A stretch of 24,000 nucleotides of DNA from an uncultured Roseobacter sp. (lineage in GTDB: Bacteria > Pseudomonadota > Alphaproteobacteria > Rhodobacterales > Rhodobacteraceae): assembly GCF_947496515.1 (NCBI RefSeq), contig NZ_CANMDB010000012.1, forward strand, positions 93,934-117,933, given 5' to 3'. Positions 2,912 through 23,654 of the stretch are shown here, one piece after another. Under the pieces are notes generated by a model. The model was given only the letters and a program-made list of their open reading frames with translations, was not told where the DNA came from and made no database searches. The stretch's first letter is position 1; every line of letters begins with the position of its first letter. The position numbers and the translations under genes were made by a program.

Positions 2912-3005
2912 GTTCATCTTCAGTGATAGTCTGGAAATTGATCCGGCCTTGCTTCTTGTCAATTTATCGGCGAGAGGTGTCGAAAATCAGAAATGGAAAA
3001 GACCC

Positions 3006-3341
3006 ATGGCGAAGATAAACCTTGAAAAGATGACAATGGCGCAATTGCAGGCTCACCAAAAAGCCGTCGCAAAAGCGATTGCAAAGCTGGAAAAGCAGCA
3101 AAAGACCGAAGCTCTCAAAGCGGCCAAGACAGCTGCGAGCAAATACGGCTATTCCTTGAATGAGCTTCTTGAGTCAGCGCCGGACCCAAGTCGCGTTCGC
3201 AAAACGACCAAAGCACCAGCCAAGTATCGGCATCCGGAGAACCCCGAGGTGACCTGGACAGGTCGTGGAAGGCAGCCAGGTTGGATCAAAGAAGCCATCC
3301 AATCTGGCAAATCAGTAGACGATTTCCTGATCGCAGATTGA
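3006..3341 (+). CDS. H-NS family nucleoid-associated / xenogeneic-silencing protein
   Basis: 111 aa starting at ATG 3006 (MAKINLEKMTMAQL...) behind ggaaaag. N-terminal coiled-coil-like, Lys/Ala-rich segment. The C-terminus carries the H-NS DNA-binding signature KYRHPENPEVTWTGRGRQPGWIKEAI (TWxGRGRxPxW). Confidence 0.85.
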   Translation: MAKINLEKMTMAQLQAHQKAVAKAIAKLEKQQKTEALKAAKTAASKYGYSLNELLESAPDPSRVRKTTKAPAKYRHPENPEVTWTGRGRQPGWIKEAIQSGKSVDDFLIAD

Positions 3342-4286: not shown

Positions 4287-4842
4287 GGATCAGATTGCGC
4301 GACGCGACGGTACGCCCCCGCGCGTCAAGACGCCCATCCATCCATCGGGGATCAGGTTGACGAGTGCATGTCGTCACAGATGGTGGATCATCGCTATCAA
4401 ACAAAAATAGGTGAAGATCTAGAAGCCCATTTTCCTGAGGCTGCAAGATCCGCTGAGCAGACGCCATCGGAGGATCGCAGTTGTCGGCCTTCTGCATCTC
4501 CCTGACACCGCAAAGCCGAGAACTAAGAGATCAGGGTGTTCGGTCTAGGCATTGCGAACAAAGCTGAGTCGACTATTGGCAACTTGGCAGAACTTGCAAA
4601 ACACCGGCCAGGATAGATCTCGCGACGAACGCGTTCTTTGGGCTTCGAAGGTGGAACTTTCGCCTAAGATCGAAGGTAGTGTCCTCAACCATCAGACCCC
4701 CTAGACCCGATTTCTAGTGGAGCGTATCCACGACGTGTGTAAGCGCAGACAGTCCTGACGCAGTGCCGTCCTGTGCCTCTTCCGCAGCAGCCACCGGCTC
4801 GGGCGCAAACGGTCCGTACCTGTCCGGTCGTCTCGACGGAAG

Positions 4843-5220
4843 AGGAAAGGCGGCTTCCACGCCGTTGGCGCGGACCCACCGCCTTTCCTCTTTCGTCCAT
4901 CCGTCAAGGGCCAGGTAAGTCCTTCTTGCGCGACCGATCCGACGGCTGACGAGCAAGTCAGACCTCACCGCCCCTGTCCACCGTCGGAATTGCAGAGACC
5001 GCTGCGCGGTCACGGGTTTTCTGGGCCCGCCAAAGCGGGCCGTGCGCTCCCTCACCTCCGGCATCAAAGCAAGCCGGATTTCAGGACTTCTGGCAAAGAG
5101 AATATTTGCATTTATGTCAAATATATCAGTATTTTAGATCGCCACGGCATGATAAAAAAGAGGAGTGGACTAGCCGACGACGACTGCCATCCGCAATCAC
5201 AGGTTTTGACCATGACAGCC
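4843..5220 (+). repeat. Structured leader module, copy A (two-tier hairpin, conserved blocks, RBS, start codon), upstream of the PAPS-reductase-like gene
   Basis: Collinear with copy B. Shared elements are an outer and inner hairpin, then these blocks: cttgcgcgaccga(t)ccgacggctgacgagcaag, gcccgccaaRgcgggc(c)gtgcgctccctc.c.tccggcatcaaagcaag, tgtcaaataWatcagta, aaagaggaRKggac, accatgacagcc. Confidence 0.8.
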
Positions 5221-6123
5221 GCACCACCAAAGAGCATTGAGGCGAGCATGGGGGACCATGCCCAACCTGCTTGCCAAGTCTACGTTCACCCAAGCTGGCC
5301 GCGTGTCAGCGAACCCCTCGAAGGGGCAGATCTGCGCGTGCTGTCGCTTGGTGCAGGTGTCCAGAGCACCACACTCGCCCTAATGGCCGTGCATGGCGAA
5401 ATTGGCCCAATGCCAGATGTAGCAGTCTTTGCCGATACTGAATGGGAACCCGAACCGGTCTACGAGCACCTCAGATGGCTCATGAGTGGCAACATCCTGC
5501 CGTTTCCTGTGCACCGCGTCAGTGCTGTCAATCTGCGCCAGCAAGTGATCGACAGGGGAGGGGGCAGGGCGTTTCATTTCGCTCCCCTTCTTTCTCGACA
5601 GCGGGGGCATGGGTCGCAGACAGTGTACGCGGGAAGCGAAGATCGCACCTATCCGCGCAGAAGTTCAGCGCCTACTAGGGCTCGCTAAGGGCGAACGCAC
5701 GACCAGGTTTCGCATCGAGTAGTGAATCGGTATCTCCACGGACGAAATGGGACACATGAAGGATGCGCGCGAGGCCTGGGTGACACATCGCTGGTCACTT
5801 ATCGAGGCGCGTATGTCGCGTGGCGACTGCTACGCATGACTGCAACGCCACGGATACCCAACACCCCCCAAGTCTTCCTGCATCGGCTGTCCTTACCATA
5901 GCGATGCCTTCTGGCAGCGGATGCAGTGCGAAGATCCCGTGGCTTTCAGGGATGCCGTCGCAGTTGATGCAGCTCTTCGGCAAAACGGTCGGGCGCGGGG
6001 CATGCGGCCAGGAGAATACATGTACAGATCCTATCAGCCTTTGGGAGAGGTCGACTTCGAGGCGAGGGCAGGGGGGCGTAGATGCCATTTGCGGATGAGT
6101 GCGATGGTGTTTGTGGCACCTGA
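5212..6123 (+). pseudogene. PAPS reductase / PP-loop ATPase-like protein (plasmid and phage-associated family), decayed
   Basis: N-terminus LRVLSLGAGVQSTTLALMAVHGEIGPMPDVAVFADTEWEPEPVYEHLRWL (PP-loop SxGxxS). It continues in another frame as GRFISLPFFLDSGGMGRRQCTREAKIAPIRAEVQRLLG...IE**IGISTDEMGHMKDAR...RGDCYA*LQRHGYPTPPKSSCIGCPYHSDAFW. It ends in a third frame as DECDGVCGT*. Two frameshifts sit in G-runs (about 5555-5564 and 6071-6076). Three in-frame stops: TAG 5720, TGA 5723, TGA 5837. Confidence 0.75.
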
Positions 6124-6577
6124 ACTGCAAGAGCCGGTCTGGTGGCTCACCAAGGATGGCGACCGAACCCGTTTGAGGATGTATGAGAGACACTACTCTG
6201 CCTATCGATACCGCGATGGTAGAAAGGGAAGGCTCTTTGTTGGCCCGGGTGAAAAGACTGTCCTGCGCACCAGGCGCCGAGATGCGTTCTTTGTCTGGCG
6301 AAATTTCAGCGAAGCCTCCGGTCAGACAGGCGTCAACTGCGCTGTCTTCCGTAACGAGAGCGCTCACCGATCCTCAGGCCTTATCCGACAGGCGGACCAT
6401 GTCGCTTATCACGTCTGGCCTGATGCGCGGCATTACATATACTTGGGTCCGCACGCTGTCGCCTCCCCGATAGCAGGTGTGGAACGTCGCCCATCACTTA
6501 CTCGATGTGCTGATTTTTCTGAATCGGATCAATGGGCCGCGTCACGCAACACTGATCTAAACGTCAAGCATTGCTGA
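6104..6577 (+). CDS. Hypothetical protein, start overlapping the end of the PAPS-reductase-like pseudogene
   Basis: Open frame with protein-like sequence WWLTKDGDRTRLRMYERHYSAYRYRDGRKGRLFVGPGEKTVLRTRRRDAFFVWRNFSEASGQTGVNCAVFRNES. The start is uncertain (ATG 6095/6104 or GTG 6107/6113). The C-terminal part looks less protein-like and may also be damaged. Confidence 0.45.
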   Translation: MVFVAPELQEPVWWLTKDGDRTRLRMYERHYSAYRYRDGRKGRLFVGPGEKTVLRTRRRDAFFVWRNFSEASGQTGVNCAVFRNESAHRSSGLIRQADHVAYHVWPDARHYIYLGPHAVASPIAGVERRPSLTRCADFSESDQWAASRNTDLNVKHC

Positions 6578-7054
6578 CCCAGACCGTCCATCCAGCATGG
6601 AGCTGGCTATGCCTGCCATGCGGACTCTGCCGCCATTGCCGTACCAAAAACGGATGGCCGCTGTGCGCGCTTCGCCCGGGTAACGAAAAGCTGCAACGGC
6701 GGAAAGTAGGCGTTTGCGGCGGGTGGAACCGACCACTACGGAGGGCATAAGCAGATCCACTGAACGCTACATTGAACCGCCTATAAGGGCGACAGTCGTC
6801 CTTAGGAGAGACCATTTTCCAACCTCATGTGACCGGCCTGCGGCAGATCACGACAATCATCTGGTGCGAGGCGGACGACGAAGAACATTGTAAGGTGCGA
6901 GGCCATGACAGTGGAGCGCAAGAGCCTGCACCGTCGTCTTCCGTCCCCGGTCAAGAAGGTCAATCCGTTCCGCTATTGTTCTTCTCTTCTAGATGGGCGA
7001 CAATTTGCCTATTGGCCGACATTCGTACCATCGGTGATTTGCAATGGAGATTTC

Positions 7055-10000
7055 ATGGACGCGACCATCGTTCACCTGAGCGACCTACATTTCAAGAATG
7101 ATGCTGAGAACCGCCTCCGTCTGCGCTGCTTGCGGACCGATCTGAAGAAGTTGGAGGCGGAGGGAACGATATACACGGTTCTTACCGGTGATCTCGTGAA
7201 TGCAGGCGATGACAACACGTTCGACCTGCTACTCGACGAGCTAGTCGGACCTTTGCTCGAAATGGGGCACGAGGTCTTCGTCGTCCCCGGAAACCACGAT
7301 GTTCAGCGCGCTGTTGCCGATCGATCCTTCTGCGATCGCATCCTCGCCGATCGTGCGAGCGGCTATTTGTTCACGGGAGAGCCCATCCTCGGGACGATCA
7401 CCCCGATCCCGTGTTTGACGTGCTGGCGAACTACCGCGACTTCGAAGAACTGTTTGGTCCCTACGATCAGCAGAGCTATTGGGGGTACACTGCCACTAGG
7501 GGATCGGTATCTTTCGTCGGGCTTAACTCCGCTTGGTTATGCTGCGCGCGCCCCAAGGGCGAAACCGATCGTGGCGCTTTGCGTGTCGAACCCGCCGTCT
7601 TGGAGAAGCTCGTCCAGAACCTGCCGGACGACACGCTTCGCGTGGCGCTGCTTCACCATCCGTTGGACTGGTTGGAAGAGACCACCCGCAGCGCTGTCAG
7701 CGACCTGCTTATCAACAACGCCGACCTCGTTCTCTTCGGTCACGTTCATGCTAACGATGTCGTTGGACAGATCAAGGGGAACGCGAAAAGCGTATTCCTC
7801 CAAGCGCCACCTCTCCGCGCTGATTGGTCCAAGGGGACAAATGGGTACGCGATCGTGCGGACTGATACCGAACACAAGAAGTTCGAGGTTCAATACCGGT
7901 CATACTCGAAGTCTCAGCGCACCTTCGTTTCTGGCGAGGATTTTGCGCCCACTGGCCGCATGTATCCTCGCCCTGAGGACGCAGACTTCTTTCGGAACTC
8001 GCCCCCGCTTTCCGCCCTCCTTCGCCGGTTTGCCGAAACCGAGTCCGTCGACTACCTCGACTGGTATCGGACCCACATCCGCTCTAAGTCGAAGGTGACG
8101 GGGTCGTTCGTGATTCCCAAGGTTCATCACGTTACTGCATCGCAGGAAGGACCTTTTCTCGATCCGCCGCAGTCTTTGACCCACGTCGTCGCCCAATCGG
8201 CATGCGACCAGTTTTTCGTTGCGCCGCTTGACGCGGGCTCCACGACGGCCGCATACCTCACATTCAAGCATCTCTCCGAGACGTTCTCGGTTCATCGCCA
8301 GGTGCCGGCGTACTTCGACGCCGGTCGAGAATCTATCAACAAGGCATCGATCCTTCGCAAGATCAGCCAGACGACCCCCATCCGCTACTCCCACATGGAA
8401 GCTGAGCAGCTGGTCGATGAGGCTGCTGTTGTCGTGGTCGTCGATGGGCTGTGTCTAGGTGATGTCGAACAGTTCAACTTGTTCCGTGACACCGTCGACC
8501 GGCATTTACCGAACATCCGTTTTCTCTACTTCCTAAGCACGGAGCGGCGCGGCCTGTCGCCCACCGGCGTGGGCGAACCGCGCCTCTATTCCAGTGAAGA
8601 CGAGATATACGAGTTTGCCCAACTCGATGTTGACGGCATTCGATCCATGATTGCGATCCGGATTCCCGACAAGGCCGAGGCGGTGCGAGAGGGCGTCGTC
8701 AGCCACGTCGTCGAAAGCTTTCGACAGATGGACGAGCCGATCTTCGCAAGCACCGTCGCTGTGGTGATCGACACCATAACCCAAGATCCGGAATTCAAGC
8801 CACTTAACAAGGCCCGGCTGATCGAGCGATACGTCGAATGCCTCTTGGGACGGTTCGATCTGGAAGACGTGCGAGAGGGGGCGTTCTCGTCGAGCGACAA
8901 GATCAACTTCCTCGCATTCGTGGCGCGTCAGTTGCTGGAGGAGAACCGAGTGGGAATGGACGAGGGTCGATGGCATGGGCTGGTCTCGACTTATCAGGCC
9001 CGTTTCCTTATCGAGCTTCCCCGCCAGCTGCTGAAGGAATTTTTGGACAAAGGCCTTCTGACGATGGAAGGAGGCGAGATCACCTTCCGAGGTGACCATC
9101 TGTTCTCGTTCTTCGTGGCGCAAGAAATGAAGCGTGACGCCGATTTTGCTGCATCCCTTGTCGAGGGTCCGGGTCTGTTTCGGCATTACAGGGAGATCAC
9201 GGTCTACGGTGAACTGGAAGGCACAAATGTCGCCAAGGTGCTCAATGGTGTTTTCCAGGAACTCTGCGCCATAGAAGAGACCCTTCTTGAAAATTATTCG
9301 CGTATCGGCGTCGACCTGACGGCAGAATGGGTGGCCGCGTGCAACGAGGCTGAGGCTAAGGCCGTCTCGGAGTCCCTCGACGAAGCGGCCGCGGGTCTAG
9401 GCACGGCGGATGCCACCGCTGAAGGAGCCGATCGACACGACAACGCGGAGCTTGCGAAGATCGACCGTCGTCGTGGCGTCTCCGAGCGTCAGGAAGTTCG
9501 GGAATCGGAAGCCAGACTCTTGGTCGGCATGCGGCTCTACGGACTACTGCTGAAGAACGCGCTGCACCTCGAGGCTCCATACAAGTTGCGTCATTTAAAA
9601 AAGCTCTATGAAGCGGCGGAACTGTGGGTCGGATTCATGTGCGCCGGCCGCGAAGCCATCGGTCGTCATCCGATCGTCATCGCAGGCGGCGTGCGCTTCA
9701 TAAATCTCGGGGCCATGGTGGACAAGGAACGATCCTACAGAGACTTCAAGTTCAACGCACCGAACACGGTGTCCCGACTGATCGCCGGCACGATGCGTAA
9801 TCCTCAGCTTTCCATCGCGATCAGGAACCTGATTGGCGATCTTGATCCGATGAGTCAGTTGTTTGCCCGTGATGTGCTGCTGGAGATGCCGGGTGATCAG
9901 AACAGGGACGCGTATCTCGGGTCGCTCAAGAGCGAGGAGGACATCAACCTTGTCATCTGCGCATTGCGAACGCTACGAATCCGATACCTTTCCGCCGGAC

Positions 10001-10149
10001 GAAATCAGGATCGCAGGAACTATCTGGAGAGTATCGTGAATGCGATTGCTAAAGACCCGCGCGTCGCAAGACGCGTCGACTTCTCAAAGCTCCGAAAGGC
10101 TCGCCTTGTTCAGGACTTGCGCGGAAAGGCAGCTCAAGGTATCGAATAG
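7055..10149 (+). CDS. Calcineurin-like metallophosphoesterase fused to a NACHT/STAND-type NTPase and a helical C-terminal domain; reading frame broken once near 7401 (ORF pieces 7055..about 7405 and 7411..10149)
   Basis: ATG 7055 lies behind GGAGA. All metallophosphoesterase (MPE) motifs are present, and they span the frame break: VHLSDLHF, TGDLVNAGD, VPGNHD | LLHHPL, FGHVHAN. STAND features follow: Walker A-like APLDAGSTTAAY (8221-8256), Walker B VVVVVDGL, STERRG, and the winged-helix signature KGLLTMEGGEITFRGDHLFSFFVAQEM. After that come about 400 aa of helical sequence with no obvious repeats. Adding one C to the C4 run at 7401-7404 gives the continuous reading GEPILGTITPDPVFDVLANYRDF. Confidence 0.8.
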
Positions 10150-10531: not shown

Positions 10532-11524
10532 TTAGAACGCTGGCTGCCGGTATTCTTGTTTCTTGGTCAGTATCGCCCAGATGGTCCGGGCTGCCTTGTT
10601 TGCCATGGCGACCGTTGCCAGCCGGAACGGTTTGTCGGCGATAATCTTAGCGGTCCAAAGATCAACCTTCTCCGGCGAACGTTTCGCCATCACTGCGCGA
10701 GACGTCATGCCCACGACCAACAGTTTACGAATGTAGCGATCACCCTGCTTCGTGATCTTGCCAAGACGTTCCTTGCCGCCACTGGACTTGTTGAGCGGGG
10801 TCAGGCCCAACCAGGCCACCAAATCGCGCCCGGTGCGGAACTGTTTTGCGTCCCCGATCGTGGCGACAATCGCTGAGGCCGTGATCGGCCCAATCCCCGG
10901 CATGCGCATCAGCCAGCGCACATCTGAGCTCAGCAGGACATGTTGTTCGATCATCTTCGAATAGCCGTCGATACGTTCGTTTAGCCCGATGAATTGGTAG
11001 CACTGTATGCCAAGCATGCCGGTTGCGATCTCGGGCATGTCCGGGTGATCGCCATCAAGGTGACGCTTTGCAAAAGCCGTCACCGCTTCGATCCCGATGG
11101 GCAAGATATGCCCAAACTCGCGCAACAGGCTGCGGATCATATTGGCCAACTGAGTGCGCTGCCGGACGGCCAGATCTCGCGTGCGGTGGATTGACAGAAT
11201 GGCCTGCTGATTTTCCGTTTTGATATCGACAAAACGCATGGTCGGACGGCGGACCGCCTCGCAAATCGCTTCTGCGTCGACAGCATCGTTCTTTCCGCGC
11301 TTCACATAGGCTTTGACATATCCGGCAGGCATGAGCTTCACATCATGCCCGAGCTTGCGTAGTTGACGGCCCCAATGATGGGATGAACCGCAGGCTTCCA
11401 TGCCAACCGTGCACGGTGGCAACGTCTCAAAAAACGCCAGCAGCTTCGCGCGTTTGATCGCCTTGTTGAAGATCACACGGCCATTCTCCGAAATGCCGTG
11501 TACTTGAAAAACATCCTTGGCCAT
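10532..11524 (-). CDS. IS110-family transposase (DEDD/RuvC-like), N-terminus disrupted
   Basis: MAKDVFQVHGISENGRVIF...VGMEACGSSHHWGRQLRKLGHDVKLMPAGYVKAYVKRGKNDAVDAEAICEAV...MPGIGPITASAIVATIGDAKQFRTGRDLVAWLGLTPLNKSSGGKERLGKITKQGDRYIRKLLV is classic IS110 family. The ancestral start MTVKTVGVDL (ATG 11591, SD GGAG) lies 40 nt further upstream and out of frame. Confidence 0.88.
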   Translation of the reverse strand: MAKDVFQVHGISENGRVIFNKAIKRAKLLAFFETLPPCTVGMEACGSSHHWGRQLRKLGHDVKLMPAGYVKAYVKRGKNDAVDAEAICEAVRRPTMRFVDIKTENQQAILSIHRTRDLAVRQRTQLANMIRSLLREFGHILPIGIEAVTAFAKRHLDGDHPDMPEIATGMLGIQCYQFIGLNERIDGYSKMIEQHVLLSSDVRWLMRMPGIGPITASAIVATIGDAKQFRTGRDLVAWLGLTPLNKSSGGKERLGKITKQGDRYIRKLLVVGMTSRAVMAKRSPEKVDLWTAKIIADKPFRLATVAMANKAARTIWAILTKKQEYRQPAF

Positions 11525-11591
11525 CCCTCTCATTGACTGCTGCGCAATCAACTGCCGGTCAAAGATCCACGCCTACGGTCTTTACTGTCAT

Positions 11592-11800
11592 TGGGTGGCT
11601 CCTTTCCTAGCAGTCGTTGATAACTGCACTTTGGCACATTCGATGCCGGTGGAGCAGGAGCCACCCACCTCATCCGGAATGGGCCGCCCTTACATGCGCC
11701 AGTGTCGGCAGTCGGCGCTTTGCGGCTACTCGTGCAAGGTGCAGCATTCGGAGCTGTGGGCTCTCTTGAGACCTTCGCCGCAGGGTGCGTCAAGAAACGC
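11592..11800 (-). ncRNA. Candidate IS110 bridge (seeker) RNA region in the 5' non-coding end
   Basis: A perfect 10-bp inverted repeat, GGGTGGCTCC (11593-11602) / GGAGCCACCC (11657-11666), lies immediately upstream of the ancestral transposase start. IS110-group elements are known to encode a structured guide RNA in this position. The extent is a guess. Confidence 0.25.
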
Positions 11801-16768: not shown

Positions 16769-17107
16769 ATGAGCACTTTCGAATTAATCGTTTTCGCGAT
16801 CTGTCTCTTGATCTTGGGTTTTCTTGCCGGTGCCATCGAGGCATCCAAAGGACTCCCGTTCAAAAAGAAACTAATATTTTGGTTCGGTTACCTTTGCCTG
16901 GCCGCAGCGCCGACTTTCTTTCTTGTGCAGGTCTGGCCCGATGGGAAAAGCACGGTATCGATTTACAGCTCCTCAGATGAGGAAAACTCGCTTATGGGAC
17001 CAATCACCGCTTTGGCGTTATTTGCTGGTGTCGTCGCTGTCACTTGGTTTGGAAGACTGGCAGGCAATATCCTCAAGAAAAGAATATTCGGTACTGATCT
17101 TCAGTGA
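16769..17107 (+). CDS. Small integral membrane protein (112 aa, about 3 TM helices), hypothetical
   Basis: MSTFELIVFAICLLILGFLAGAI..., LIFWFGYLCLAAAPTFFLV..., GPITALALFAGVVAVTWFG. This is an AT-richer ORF flanked by the 75-nt repeats. Confidence 0.6.
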   Translation: MSTFELIVFAICLLILGFLAGAIEASKGLPFKKKLIFWFGYLCLAAAPTFFLVQVWPDGKSTVSIYSSSDEENSLMGPITALALFAGVVAVTWFGRLAGNILKKRIFGTDLQ

Positions 17108-17261
17108 TTGCCGAACTCTATGATCGATTGCAGACATTGGCGCAGCCGCAGCGAAAGCTCACTTCGTCCCAAGACCTGTGAGTTGCCCTGACAAATCTCG
17201 CTGCGCGATGTTCGAATGGCCGAATTTGCAGCCGCGCTGCGGCACGCCAGACTGAGCATTT

Positions 17262-17340
17262 GCAGAATTTTCCGCGCTGCGAGCGCATGCAGCAAAAAAT
17301 GAAGACTTCCGGTGTGGGCTCATCCGGTGTTTTCGCCACC
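17262..17340. repeat. Short dispersed repeat, copy 2
   Basis: gcagaattttccgcgctgcgagcgcatgcagcaaaaaatgaagacttccggtgtgggctcatccggtgttttcgccac is a direct repeat of 16456-16530. Confidence 0.6.
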
Positions 17341-17949: not shown

Positions 17950-18198
17950 ATGAAACACCTTACAAGCCGAGAGTTTAACCAAAACGTCAGCAAGGCAAAG
18001 AGAGATGCCTTGTCCGGTCCTGTTTTTGTGACGGATAGGGGCCAGCCTTCGCATGTATTGCTTAGCTATGACGAGTACAGGCGGCTGACATCTGAGCCGA
18101 CCAACATTGTCGAAGCTCTGTCAATGAAGGGACTGTCCTCGGTCGACTTTGAGACGGAGAAGGTGTCGCCTTCCATCAAACCAGTTGATCTTTCGTGA
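17950..18198 (+). CDS. Type II antitoxin, Phd/YefM family
   Basis: MKHLTSREFNQNVSKAKRDALSGPVFVTDRGQPSHVLLSYDEYRRLT matches the Phd/YefM N-terminal pattern. The stop overlaps the toxin GTG start (GTGA). Confidence 0.85.
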   Translation: MKHLTSREFNQNVSKAKRDALSGPVFVTDRGQPSHVLLSYDEYRRLTSEPTNIVEALSMKGLSSVDFETEKVSPSIKPVDLS

Positions 18199-18635
18199 TC
18201 TACCTTCTGGACACAAATGTCGTTTCAGAGCTTCGCAAGGCAGGGGATGGAAAAGCGGATGCCAATGTTGCGGAGTGGGCCTCCCTGCGAGACCCCGAAG
18301 AGCTATACATATCTGTAATTACTCTTCTGGAACTAGAAGTGGGTGTTCTCAGGATTGAGCGAAGAGACGACAAGCAAGGTCAGATGCTTCGCATTTGGCT
18401 TGAACACCATGTCATCCCCTTCTTCCAAGATCGTATTCTGCCGGTAGACGAGCATGTCGCGATTGGTTGTGCGAGGCTGCATGTTCCGAACAAGAGCCCT
18501 GAGCGTGATGCGCTGATCGCCGCAACGGCAAACGAACTCAATATGACCATCGCCACGCGTGATGAAAAAGACTTTCGAGATCTGGCTAGGAAAACCTTCA
18601 ACCCCTGGAGTTCAATGAAAGGTACCCGCGGATGA
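18195..18635 (+). CDS. vapC: Type II toxin, VapC (PIN-domain ribonuclease)
   Basis: MIYLLDTNVVSEL...YISVITLLELEVG...ERDALIAATANELNMTIATRDEKDF...NPW carries the PIN acidic residues in their canonical positions. Confidence 0.9.
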   Translation: MIYLLDTNVVSELRKAGDGKADANVAEWASLRDPEELYISVITLLELEVGVLRIERRDDKQGQMLRIWLEHHVIPFFQDRILPVDEHVAIGCARLHVPNKSPERDALIAATANELNMTIATRDEKDFRDLARKTFNPWSSMKGTRG

Positions 18636-21748: not shown

Positions 21749-22205
21749 ATCCGGCGTGAGAGTCACTCTGAGTGCAGTAGCATCGCCTCCGCGCCGAACA
21801 GGCTCCGCCGGGAGGCATCCCCTCCAGTCTGGCATCATCAGCAGCCGCAGTGAAACGCGCGACAGACCAGCTCATGGACGGCGACGGCGAAGAGCGCTCC
21901 CCGCGATCACGACACGCGGGCAGGGCGTGCGTTTTGGAACATGCCTCCGACATTCTCCTCGCAGTTGCACGCGGTTTTGCTGTGCATCAGGGAAGATGCC
22001 GTTCAACGCTGAGCCATTCGGCTCTCTCCTTTTTCCTCAGTCATACGCTTCGCACGGCGGCGGCCCGGCCGTTCCCGCCGCTAAGCGTCGGCAAGCACAA
22101 ATACGGCTTCCACACGCTTTGCGCGCGGACCCTCCGCATTTGCGCTTGCGCCCGGTCCTGACACCGCCGTGCTTCCGATGCCCATCGAAAAAAGGAGAAA
22201 CCCAA

Positions 22206-22412
22206 ATGTCCAACCACTTCACAGCAACCGTTCCCGTCAAATACACCGACAGCGACAACCGCGATCGCACCCGCTTCCAGCGCGTCGGCGTCATGTTCCA
22301 AAACGCCCGCCGCGACACCGGCGAGGTCTTCTACACCCTCAAGCTCGACTTCCCCGTCGCCGTCCACGAGCTGGTGATGTTCCCGCCCAACTCAAACGCG
22401 CCCGAGGACTGA
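22206..22412 (+). CDS. Small conserved-looking hypothetical protein (68 aa)
   Basis: A very good SD (aaaGGAGAaacccaaATG) and a strong terminator downstream. MSNHFTATVPVKYTDSDNRDRTRFQRVGVMFQNARRDTGEVFYTLKLDFPVAVHELVMFPPNS. Small beta-rich proteins of this kind accompany DUF2493 genes in conjugative elements, but I cannot name a family. Confidence 0.65.
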   Translation: MSNHFTATVPVKYTDSDNRDRTRFQRVGVMFQNARRDTGEVFYTLKLDFPVAVHELVMFPPNSNAPED

Positions 22413-22426
22413 TCCCGACAAGACAG

Positions 22427-22462
22427 AAAAAGGGGGGCCGCCTGCCGGCGGCCCCCCTTTTT
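22427..22462. terminator. Strong (potentially bidirectional) Rho-independent terminator
   Basis: AAAAA-GGGGGGCCGCC-tgcc-GGCGGCCCCCC-TTTTT: a perfect 11-bp GC stem flanked by A and T runs. Confidence 0.85.
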
Positions 22463-22956
22463 CTGCGCGTCCAACGACCGCCAAATAGGCGGGGCGTGCA
22501 GATCTCCGATGTCGTTCTCGACGTTCAGTCGATTGCGCAGCAGCGTGATGGAGATGCTGACGACGATGGGAATGATTTTCCGTTGGGCCCCTGCCACGGC
22601 TCAGGGCCGTGGCACCAGGCTCTAGGTTCCGTCCGCGATGCGGCCTCCACCCAGAACCACCAGGCCTCTTCCTCCCTGCCGCAATAGCCCTGTCACTGTC
22701 TCCACAGGAGCCAGTGAAAGGGCTTTGCGCCATGGTCGGCGAGACCTGCCGTTTCTGCCCTCCGGGTAACGATCCTTGGGGCGGCGCTCTACGGGCAAGT
22801 TCAGGGTAGGACGGTAGGCCGGGCATCCCACTCCGGGGATTCGTCGCTGCGCTCCGAACGCCCATCGTGGTTTCTGGCCTCTCCAGAGTTCCGCGGGCCT
22901 GCACGCCAGCCTCTGGTCAGTCGCGGGCCTTTCGCTACGAGATCTGCGCGTCCCGC

Positions 22957-23315
22957 CCAAGGGCTAATTTCCCCTGGCCCGTTGGGCCATTCATCGCGAA
23001 ACAAATTAGCCCTTGGCCGCGCCACCCATATCCCGCAGACGAGGCCTTGCGCGACCGACCGACGGCTGACGAGCAAGCCAGCAGACGAAGCACCTGTGAT
23101 CGACCGGCTTAAATCGAGGCCGCGGTGCGGCCAAGGTTATTATTGCCCGCCAAGGCGGGCGTGCGCTCCCTCTCTCCGGCATCAAAGCAAGACCATCAAG
23201 CGCCTGATTGCAAACGGTTTATTCGTCATTTTGTCAAATAAATCAGTAGGTTGAGAGGCGCTTGTAATGTAGTATGGGAGCAGCAGAAAGAGGAAGGGAC
23301 AGCACCATGACAGCC
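22957..23315 (+). repeat. Structured leader module, copy B, upstream of the 23307 gene cluster
   Basis: Outer IR CCAAGGGCTAATTT (22957-22970) / AAATTAGCCCTTGG (23003-23016) with inner hairpin GGCCC-gtt-GGGCC. The same ordered conserved blocks as copy A follow (23046, 23145, 23232, 23288), through accatgacagcc (23304-23315). Confidence 0.8.
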
Positions 23316-23654
23316 CAAGTTGAGGTCCTGAATGCCAACACACCCGAGTACTGGATCGACGTCAAAGAAAGGGCCAGAACACGGAAGGTAGATGCGTTGA
23401 TTGCAGACGGTCTGCGGAGATTGCGGGTCAGTTCCGTCTATGAGCAGTACGTCATGGATCAGCTTGAGGTCATCCGAGGCGCAGCGCAGAAGACCGGTAT
23501 TCTGAACGAGCCCGATGCTTATCTTGCGCTGAAACAGCGGTACGCCAAGACGCTCGGCCTGCCTGAGCTTCTGGAAGACGAACAGACCACGGCGCGGTTT
23601 TGCGAGGAAGCGGTCGCAGACGCCTACACAGCTCTCTACGGAGAAGCCCTATGA
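23307..23654 (+). CDS. Hypothetical protein (115 aa)
   Basis: ATG 23307 lies behind gaggaaggg (the alternative start is 23274). MTAQVEVLNANTPEYWIDVKERARTRKVDALIADGLRRL... No family recognised. Confidence 0.6.
   Translation: MTAQVEVLNANTPEYWIDVKERARTRKVDALIADGLRRLRVSSVYEQYVMDQLEVIRGAAQKTGILNEPDAYLALKQRYAKTLGLPELLEDEQTTARFCEEAVADAYTALYGEAL

Follow-up and report, generated by a model that had tools for sequence, protein, structure and literature searches.

Minus-strand hairpins at the heads of Roseobacter plasmid operons: candidate single-stranded DNA promoter or priming elements of conjugative leading regions

What do the two elaborate hairpins do that stand at the heads of two gene modules in a 24,000-nucleotide stretch of DNA from an uncultured Roseobacter sp. 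(contig NZ_CANMDB010000012.1, positions 93,934 to 117,933; called the window below, meaning the whole stretch that was analysed)? Each is a two-tier structure, with an outer stem, internal loops and an inner stem-loop. An initial annotation described the pair, hairpins A and B, as conserved in shape but not in sequence, and proposed three roles: a single-stranded DNA (ssDNA) promoter or single-strand initiation (ssi) site, a terminator or attenuator insulating the module, or a hairpin recognized by a protein. Comparison with relatives shows that both are the tips of imperfect hairpins of about 190 nucleotides (nt) that fold better on the minus strand. The reading favoured here, with moderate confidence, is that these long hairpins head leading-region operons as an ssDNA promoter or priming element of the Frpo/ssi kind.

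The two apical hairpins are present in the window exactly as first quoted, at these positions:

22957-23016, minus strand: two-tier hairpin B, a B-type apex; outer stem 22957-22970 paired with 23003-23016.
4836-4896, minus strand: two-tier hairpin A, an A-type apex.

Read directly from the sequence, the outer stem of hairpin B has 14 base pairs (bp) and no mismatch, as originally stated, while that of hairpin A, put at 11 bp, really measures 18-19 bp (4836-4853 with 4879-4896). The inner stem-loop of B reads GGCCC-GTT-GGGCC, with a loop of 3 nt, and its internal loops are CCCCT and ATTCATCGCGAAAC in the plus sense. Hairpin A has the inner stem CGCC-GTT-GGCG, which reaches 8 bp on the minus strand, where the order is outer stem, TGGG, TCCGCGCC-AAC-GGCGTGGA, AG and outer stem. 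Folding of both strands, as DNA and as RNA, gives z values of -3.9 to -7.7 against dinucleotide shuffles, with 0/200 shuffles as good in any case. Hairpins A and B are real, non-random structures.

Both belong to a larger design. The two loci share a block of about 250 nt (A 4925-5175, B 23045-23290) that starts about 30 nt 3' of each hairpin, and its first 35 nt or so have an imperfect reverse complement about 130 nt upstream (A 4788-4808, B 22896-22930). This makes each two-tier hairpin the tip of an imperfect hairpin of about 190 nt, whose right arm is the invariant start of a dispersed repeat of about 500 nt. The block runs, in order, through CTTGCGCGACCGA.CCGACGGCTGACGAGCAAG, a small covarying hairpin, a T-rich tract with a GC hairpin, an invariant box, an AT-rich box, a Shine-Dalgarno (SD)-like sequence and an ATG. 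The parts lie as follows:

22890-23085, minus strand: long imperfect hairpin B, about 196 nt; left arm 22890-22946, right arm 23027-23085.
4774-4955, minus strand: long imperfect hairpin A; basal helices 4788-4808 with 4926-4948, and weak pairing out to 4762-4969.
23042-23085, minus strand: conserved right arm B, CCTTGCGCGACCGACCGACGGCTGACGAGCAAGCCAG in the plus sense; the invariant 5' arm of the minus-strand hairpin.
4925-4961, minus strand: conserved right arm A, CTTGCGCGACCGATCCGACGGCTGACGAGCAAGTCAG in the plus sense.
4997-5073, unstranded: downstream block, copy A; small covarying hairpin 4997-5011, GC hairpin 5024-5041, invariant box GTGCGCTCCCTC..CTCCGGCATCAAAGCAAG at 5042-5073.
23118-23191, unstranded: downstream block, copy B; hairpin 23118-23132, GC hairpin 23145-23160, invariant box 23161-23191.
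5103-5214, plus strand: gene start of module A; AT-rich box 5103-5131, SD-like AAAAAAGAGGAG at 5154-5165, ATG at 5212.
23219-23309, plus strand: gene start of module B; AT-rich box 23219-23248, SD-like box 23285-23298, ATG of the first gene at 23307.
22835-22863, unstranded: degenerate remnant of an upstream GC hairpin, GGGGATTCG..CCGAACGCCC; the relatives' version carries a T run.

These long hairpins prefer the minus strand, from which the downstream genes would be transcribed as template. Long hairpin B reaches -73.7 kcal/mol on the minus strand (z -9.5) against -53.4 on the plus strand (z -5.4), and long hairpin A -58.5 kcal/mol (z -4.5) against -50.7 (z -4.0). The minus strand is the more stable in 27/27 true distinct copies, by 7.6-21.8 kcal/mol, and with composition controlled by dinucleotide shuffles its z is the lower in 13/13 lineages. 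A single chance match to the pattern (L028), inside a coding region, has no strand difference.

The two arms vary in different ways. The 5' arm of the minus strand is invariant, and the 3' arm drifts through transitions that preserve wobble pairing. In the basal stem, read in a strand-neutral pairing register, G·T cells number 33 on the minus strand and 1 on the plus strand, and a strand-neutral palindrome alignment of seven lineages gives 48 versus 26; the plus strand carries conserved A·C mismatches. An alignment of 17 sequences shows that pairing itself is maintained over the consensus long hairpin, with 91.7% of cells paired against 82.2% in shuffles (0/500 reach the observed value) and 30-44% in slid-partner controls, and with changes on both sides at 15 pairs.

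Relatives place the element in a consistent setting. The block occurs in Phaeobacter and Leisingera plasmids, in Cognatiyoonia, Marivita, Sulfitobacter and Loktanella genomes and in about 15 metagenome contigs; blastn with the blocks gave matches confined to 7 Roseobacteraceae plasmids, and in relatives the palindrome, about 185 nt long, was picked up by both BLAST and nhmmer. Replicons carry 2 to 6 or more copies, all co-oriented, and copies within a plasmid are 95-100% identical over 530-920 nt. Spacing is near-constant, nearly all copies standing at a fixed distance 5' of an operon of the same orientation. In the annotated plasmids the genes that follow each copy are on the plus strand and encode DUF3768 and ParB, DUF932 and a methylase, ArdC, DUF3560 or a toxin-antitoxin pair, with ssb also listed among the downstream genes, and all genes headed by copies point toward the mobC/relaxase operon. 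VapBC or Phd/PIN loci sit between copies. Judged by gene content and layout, these regions are conjugative leading regions, matching those of F and pESBL.

Some copies differ in their flanks. Many (L015, L016, L023 and others) have a GC-rich stem (..GGGGGGTTCGGACAAGCCGAAC..CCCCC..) and a T run upstream of the long hairpin, at -225 to -175 relative to the right arm, which is likely a plus-strand terminator insulating each module. Two copies of one family, L012 (635-960) and L025, are truncated: they retain the long hairpin together with the small hairpins and invariant box, and in place of the AT-rich and SD half they have the end of a convergent gene for a small membrane protein. The L012 copy adjoins an RseP-like M50 peptidase gene. 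In the Leisingera plasmid L001, segments close to the origin of transfer (oriT) are repeated about 300 nt upstream of dispersed elements (11445-11707 with 17057-17319; 5232-5309), and the repeated oriT-proximal segments of Leisingera plasmids include the recurring motif AAATATCCTCGGGG.

Three kinds of exchangeable module serve as apexes, A-type, B-type and type 1, and this changes how the first claim of covariation must be read. Selection on the fold had been deduced by setting A beside B, but that comparison gives no covariation evidence, because the two hairpins are non-homologous members of different families and their common GTT loop is not conserved. The GTT triloop is indeed present in both, yet homologues of B replace it with TAAA, CAAA or TTT, and homologues of A, on the minus strand, with AAA, ATA, ACAA or TCC. 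Selection on the fold emerges from each hairpin's own homologues, since compensatory changes are present within the A-type and within the B-type family. The formula of a conserved shape without conserved sequence fails as well, for the internal loops, and in A-type also the inner stem, are conserved in sequence. On these alignments, compensatory change maintains the fold of both types, and the loops and one arm are maintained in sequence.

B-type apexes recur in Cognatiyoonia and in plasmids of Phaeobacter, Leisingera, Paracoccus and Maritalea. Their loops CCCCT and ATTNNTCGCG are conserved and both stems covary, with compensatory changes at five positions of the outer stem and with inner stems that read GGCCC/GGGCC, GCGCCGC/GCGGCGC and GGGCC/GGCCC around the loops GTT, TAAA/CAAA and TTT. 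A-type homologues occur in 57 plasmid records. Their consensus on the minus strand is outer stem, (A/T)GGG, TCCGCG..loop..CGTGGA, A(G/A) and outer stem; the inner stem holds an invariant G·T, the outer stem has compensatory changes at six positions, and 125/128 cells are paired on the minus strand versus 114 on the plus strand. In five relatives the A-type hairpin lies about 50 nt 5' of a 68-aa gene that is homologous to the small reading frame 22203-22412 of the window and comes first beside the relaxase operon, and in Paracoccus pTAV1 it lies 5' of ssb. The window has a further example, which the initial annotation had not listed:

22091-22149, minus strand: third two-tier hairpin, A-type and stand-alone (outside any long hairpin), 53 nt upstream of the small open reading frame (ORF) 22203-22412.

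A hairpin of this kind precedes the homologous relaxase-adjacent gene in many Roseobacter plasmids.

Type 1 is the apex of most sister elements, in Leisingera, Phaeobacter, Marivita, Loktanella and metagenomes. Its motif is CAAG-NNN-CTTTCGCGGCATAT..variable inner hairpin..GGTATTCCACGG-NNN-CTTG, with a core CTTTCGCGGCATA..TATTCCACG enclosed in the CAAG..CTTG stem. A regular-expression search over the whole window found no occurrence of it, and the A-type and B-type apexes of the window share only short likenesses with type 1 (CGTGGAA, TTTCGCG). The element profile matches F at the type-1 motif (nhmmer E 1.4e-5), and the motif is spread over more than 5000 plasmid records, which come from Enterobacterales, Burkholderia, Pseudomonas and Roseobacter, and is present in a Parageobacillus plasmid. 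It often precedes a DNA methylase gene, by about 107 nt in F, pESBL (M.EcoGIX) and Burkholderia pRF23, and it also occurs in a 3-kb Providencia plasmid. Type-1 hairpins were located at these sites:

2009-2060 in L037 (F).
4624-4675 in L048 (pESBL).
2833-2879 and 8011-8061 in L040.
2177-2238 in L038.
6001-6055 in L039.

The type-1 hairpin has no Rfam entry, and the searchable literature yielded nothing relevant on its motif strings or on Roseobacter leading-region elements. The B-type apex (22957-23016) recalls type 1 in two places: in TTTCGCG, which it has on the opposite strand, and in CGATGAAT (compare CGTGGAAT), which it has on the same one. It may be a type-1 apex inverted by recombination between the arms of the long hairpin, a suggestion drawn from a short likeness that works partly in both orientations.

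The next question is which strand is transferred. In three plasmid lineages the minus strand carries an RP4/MOBP-type nick core, TATCCTGC, placed 39-43 nt upstream of the gene that opens the relaxase operon; minus is therefore the transferred strand (T-strand) in the related plasmids. With such a nick, it is the minus strand that would lead transfer into the element-bearing region, as in F and IncI1 plasmids. The segment 20243-22400 of the window, with a DUF2493 gene and the small ORF, is syntenic with 149 Roseobacter plasmids, 141/149 of them typed as conjugative, and in the related plasmids examined this gene pair lies just upstream of the relaxase operon and co-oriented with it. By this synteny the T-strand of the window would be the minus strand as well.

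A second nick-like sequence deserves a remark. The invariant box GTGCGCTCCCT(C), found at 5042-5053 and 23161-23172 and in all sister copies, directly follows the covarying GC hairpin, with a T-rich tract before that hairpin, and holds CCUCC-like stretches that resemble an anti-Shine-Dalgarno sequence. In MOBQ-type oriT nick regions an inverted repeat is followed by TAAGTGCGCCCTY on the nicked strand (consensus in PMC3832669). The box resembles that consensus but has a 1-nt insertion, lacks TAA and lies on the plus strand. The relaxase-proximal nick motif of these plasmids is RP4-like. A hammerhead-like reading of CTGACGAG was also tried and dropped, as the rest of the core is missing and Rfam gave no match.

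Known single-strand signals offer two points of comparison. The single-strand origins of rolling-circle plasmids and the minus-strand origin of M13 are imperfect palindromes of 150-300 nt, specific to one strand and orientation and active only as ssDNA, in which structure is conserved above sequence and short loop motifs are conserved. Those origins serve small rolling-circle replicons and do not head operons, and they have no sequence relation to the elements here. The closer comparison is with ssDNA promoters of the Frpo/ssi type, reportedly treated by Masai and Arai in 1997. Class 1 promoters of this type are known from F and ColIb-P9 (PMC9849209; PMC11541004), and the two F copies, Frpo1 and Frpo2, are dispersed, nearly identical repeats that flank a toxin-antitoxin locus (PMC9849209).

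The elements share with this class large imperfect stem-loops on the transferred strand (in the window by synteny) and the arrangement as dispersed, near-identical leading-region repeats, each standing 5' of an establishment or anti-defence operon of the same orientation, and separated by toxin-antitoxin loci. In the related plasmids the transferred strand is also the template of the leading genes, and synteny suggests the same for the window. The large stable stem-loop is on the minus strand, and the same folding test responds in the same way to the F controls, with T-strand z values of -7.9 versus -4.9 for Frpo2 and -7.2 versus -5.1 for Frpo1. The differences are also clear: the host clade is Rhodobacterales, at about 60% G+C, and the architecture sets an exchangeable two-tier apex in a 190-nt hairpin that has one invariant arm and leads on to more conserved hairpins and an invariant box. 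Sequence homology to class 1 and a -35/-10 pair reconstituted in the stem, two marks of that class, were not found.

A second link runs through the methylase locus. In PMC12672017 the gene for M.EcoGIX, the methylase of pESBL, is reported to be under a 'class 3' ssDNA promoter hairpin, with its start mapped by 5' rapid amplification of cDNA ends (RACE). The hairpin at this locus in pESBL, and its F homologue, is homologous to the type-1 apex of the sister elements, has the same two-tier design and is likewise better paired on the T-strand; the A-type and B-type apexes of the window differ in having no type-1 motif.

Strand asymmetry, leading-region position and orientation, multiple dispersed copies, the F match and the link from type 1 to M.EcoGIX are the grounds for reading the long hairpins as an ssDNA element of the Frpo/ssi kind. 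Of the three roles first proposed, the ssDNA promoter or ssi site fits best by strand, position and likeness to F, with the reservation that promoter hexamers were not found. The A and B elements are probably the marine-bacterial counterparts of the ssDNA promoters or priming sites of E. coli plasmids, a function that we infer from these comparisons. In the mechanism proposed, the T-strand would reach the recipient as ssDNA, and the invariant arm (T-strand 5'-CTTGCTCGTCAGCCGTCGG.TCGGTCGCGCAAG) would pair with its wobble-tolerant partner as the two-tier apex folds. A host or plasmid factor, most likely RNA polymerase, would then recognize the folded DNA, as at Frpo/ssi. Early, transient transcription of establishment and anti-defence genes would follow, and/or a primer RNA for complementary-strand synthesis, and the signal would be lost on conversion to double-stranded DNA.

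Several results weigh against this proposal. A consensus scan of 4650-5300 and 22400-23400 on both strands found no canonical sigma-70 -35/-10 pair, to be read with the caution that the promoter consensus is poorly defined for Rhodobacterales hosts. A search by eye through the three apex types, on both arms and in both orientations, also found no convincing -35/-10; it turned up no more than a CTTG that recurs at the 3' base of the apex and, in a possible -10, an A at position 2. The stem-reconstituted pair that defines Frpo is missing on both counts. With nhmmer, the element profile has no match at Frpo1 or Frpo2 in the F leading region, and the type-1 hairpin is a candidate for, and not a confirmed match to, the structure drawn as the class 3 promoter in PMC12672017. 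With composition controlled, element A folds only slightly better on the minus strand (z -4.5 versus -4.0), and the genes downstream of it look frameshifted. Relaxase and oriT are both lacking from the window, whose T-strand assignment comes from synteny alone. Finally, the truncated copies L012 and L025 keep the long hairpin and invariant box with no co-oriented gene downstream, and a priming or structural role therefore fits them better than a promoter. Separately, a sigma-54 reading of TGGCAA..TTGCAT was rejected, because the spacing is wrong and the motif is missing from copy B.

An ssDNA signal that lacks promoter activity is a serious alternative, though one of fairly low probability: the hairpins could be priming sites (ssi; for PriA, primase or a plasmid protein) or roadblocks that delay duplex conversion of the leading region. 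Such a signal would explain the strand specificity, the covariation and the leading-region context equally well, and it gains from the missing -35/-10, from the missing homology to Frpo1 and Frpo2 and from L012 and L025. One arm invariant in sequence and the other selected for pairing only is also what a protein-recognized ssDNA site would be expected to show. The third original proposal, a hairpin recognized by a protein, is likewise consistent with the data, given the sequence conservation of the unpaired loops and of one arm. The F ssDNA promoter hairpin has itself been reported as a roadblock to complementary-strand synthesis (bioRxiv 10.64898/2026.01.09.698686). The placement of the elements points the other way, since nearly all copies stand at a fixed distance 5' of a co-oriented operon and A-type hairpins lie only about 50 nt from start codons, that of ssb included, as promoters would.

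An RNA-level element is unlikely. It could be an antisense RNA read from the minus strand over the hairpins, for which the asymmetry is no obstacle, G·U wobbles being legal in RNA too, or a structured plus-strand 5' leader regulating the operon, in which the small covarying hairpins and CCUCC-like stretches of the downstream block could act. The leader is contradicted by the asymmetry and by the conserved A·C mismatches on the plus strand. The minus strand has no T tract after the hairpins and no promoter-like site facing that way, and Rfam returned no family at gathering or permissive thresholds for the window, F or one sister element, the best hits being miRNA-type hairpin noise far below threshold. 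The ssDNA promoters of F, established by experiment, moreover show the same asymmetry.

Slightly less probable again is a site acting in duplex DNA, an operator or cruciform through which a global regulator of the plasmid would co-ordinate the leading-region operons. The repeat does precede many operons and has invariant sequence boxes, and genes of the helix-turn-helix and ParB families lie nearby, but a duplex site gives no reason for G·T to be preferred over A·C on one strand (33 versus 1) or for arms 130 nt apart to keep compensatory pairing.

Selfish palindromic repeats, like miniature inverted-repeat transposable elements (MITEs), or folded recombination sites that shuffle gene modules are very improbable. 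The attC sites of integrons stand at module boundaries, fold on one strand, conserve shape above sequence and vary in their terminal structure, and the many near-identical copies per plasmid, the imperfect palindrome and the variable apex recall such elements. All copies are co-oriented with genes, however, conservation extends far beyond the palindrome, and the elements are far longer than attC sites, with extensive conserved flanks. The stem ends of hairpins A and B, which read CCAAGGG..CCCTTGG and GACGGAAG..CTTTCGTC, have no RYYYAAC/GTTRRRY core boxes, and no integron integrase domain was found among the scanned ORFs of the window. Both the MITE and the attC readings fit the data poorly, and a retron reading was not favoured either.

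Directly after ORF 22203-22412, the gene upstream of B, lies a perfect 19-bp palindrome with a 4-nt loop (22424-22465; CAGAAAAAGGGGGGCCGCC/GGCGGCCCCCCTTTTTCTG), probably a bidirectional terminator. Least probable of all is that the two-tier hairpins are ordinary terminators or attenuators, which would end upstream transcription and so insulate the module as first suggested: strong, GC-rich and intergenic as they are, they have no T tract on either strand, a terminator scan of 4650-5300 and 22400-23400 calls none, their stems are broken by large internal loops of 5-14 nt, the plus-strand fold is the weaker one, the upstream gene of B has its own hairpin, and relatives have a separate stem and T run further upstream.

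Elsewhere in the window, the first gene of module A, PAPS-reductase-like and starting at 5212, is apparently frameshifted, its frame breaking after about 5688 (region 5212-6577), and a metallophosphoesterase and STAND-like NTPase gene (6905-10149) is split between frames near 7400, as ORFs 6905-8098 and 7411-10149. Either sequencing errors or pseudogenes may explain why these genes, downstream of element A, look damaged. Between elements A and B lie an IS110-family transposase on the minus strand (10532-11551) and a Phd/YefM-PIN toxin-antitoxin pair (17950-18635). Upstream of element A are an H-NS-like gene (2949-3341) and a gene for an RTX-type calcium-binding repeat protein (13-2400) with 450-nt tandem repeats of 65-92% identity.

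An ssDNA promoter or priming element in these plasmids would bear on how conjugation works outside the enterobacteria. Early expression from the incoming single strand is now viewed as central to the evasion of host defences by conjugative plasmids. According to PMC12672017, such signals have been demonstrated only in enterobacterial IncF/IncI plasmids and are thought to be non-functional in distant hosts. No such element has been described before in Rhodobacterales. The conservation of type 1 across phyla suggests, on comparative grounds, a host factor common to very different bacteria. A wider and more speculative proposal, offered with clear reservations, is that plasmid leading regions draw on a limited set of two-tier hairpin modules that are read solely from the transferred strand. 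Type 1 would be the widespread form, in F/IncI, Burkholderia, Roseobacter and perhaps a Firmicute, with A-type and B-type as undescribed alphaproteobacterial equivalents, and in Rhodobacterales interchangeable apexes set in the 190-nt hairpin, with its invariant arm as second recognition site, would form a composite promoter or priming signal that works with no canonical -35/-10. If the reading of the long hairpins as Frpo/ssi-like elements is true, marine Alphaproteobacteria would gain candidate early-expression signals with clear covariation and multiple copies per plasmid. The asymmetry of G·T over A·C would allow leading regions and the transferred strand to be annotated from sequence alone, and with the elements the need of ssDNA promoters for canonical hexamers could be put to a concrete test.

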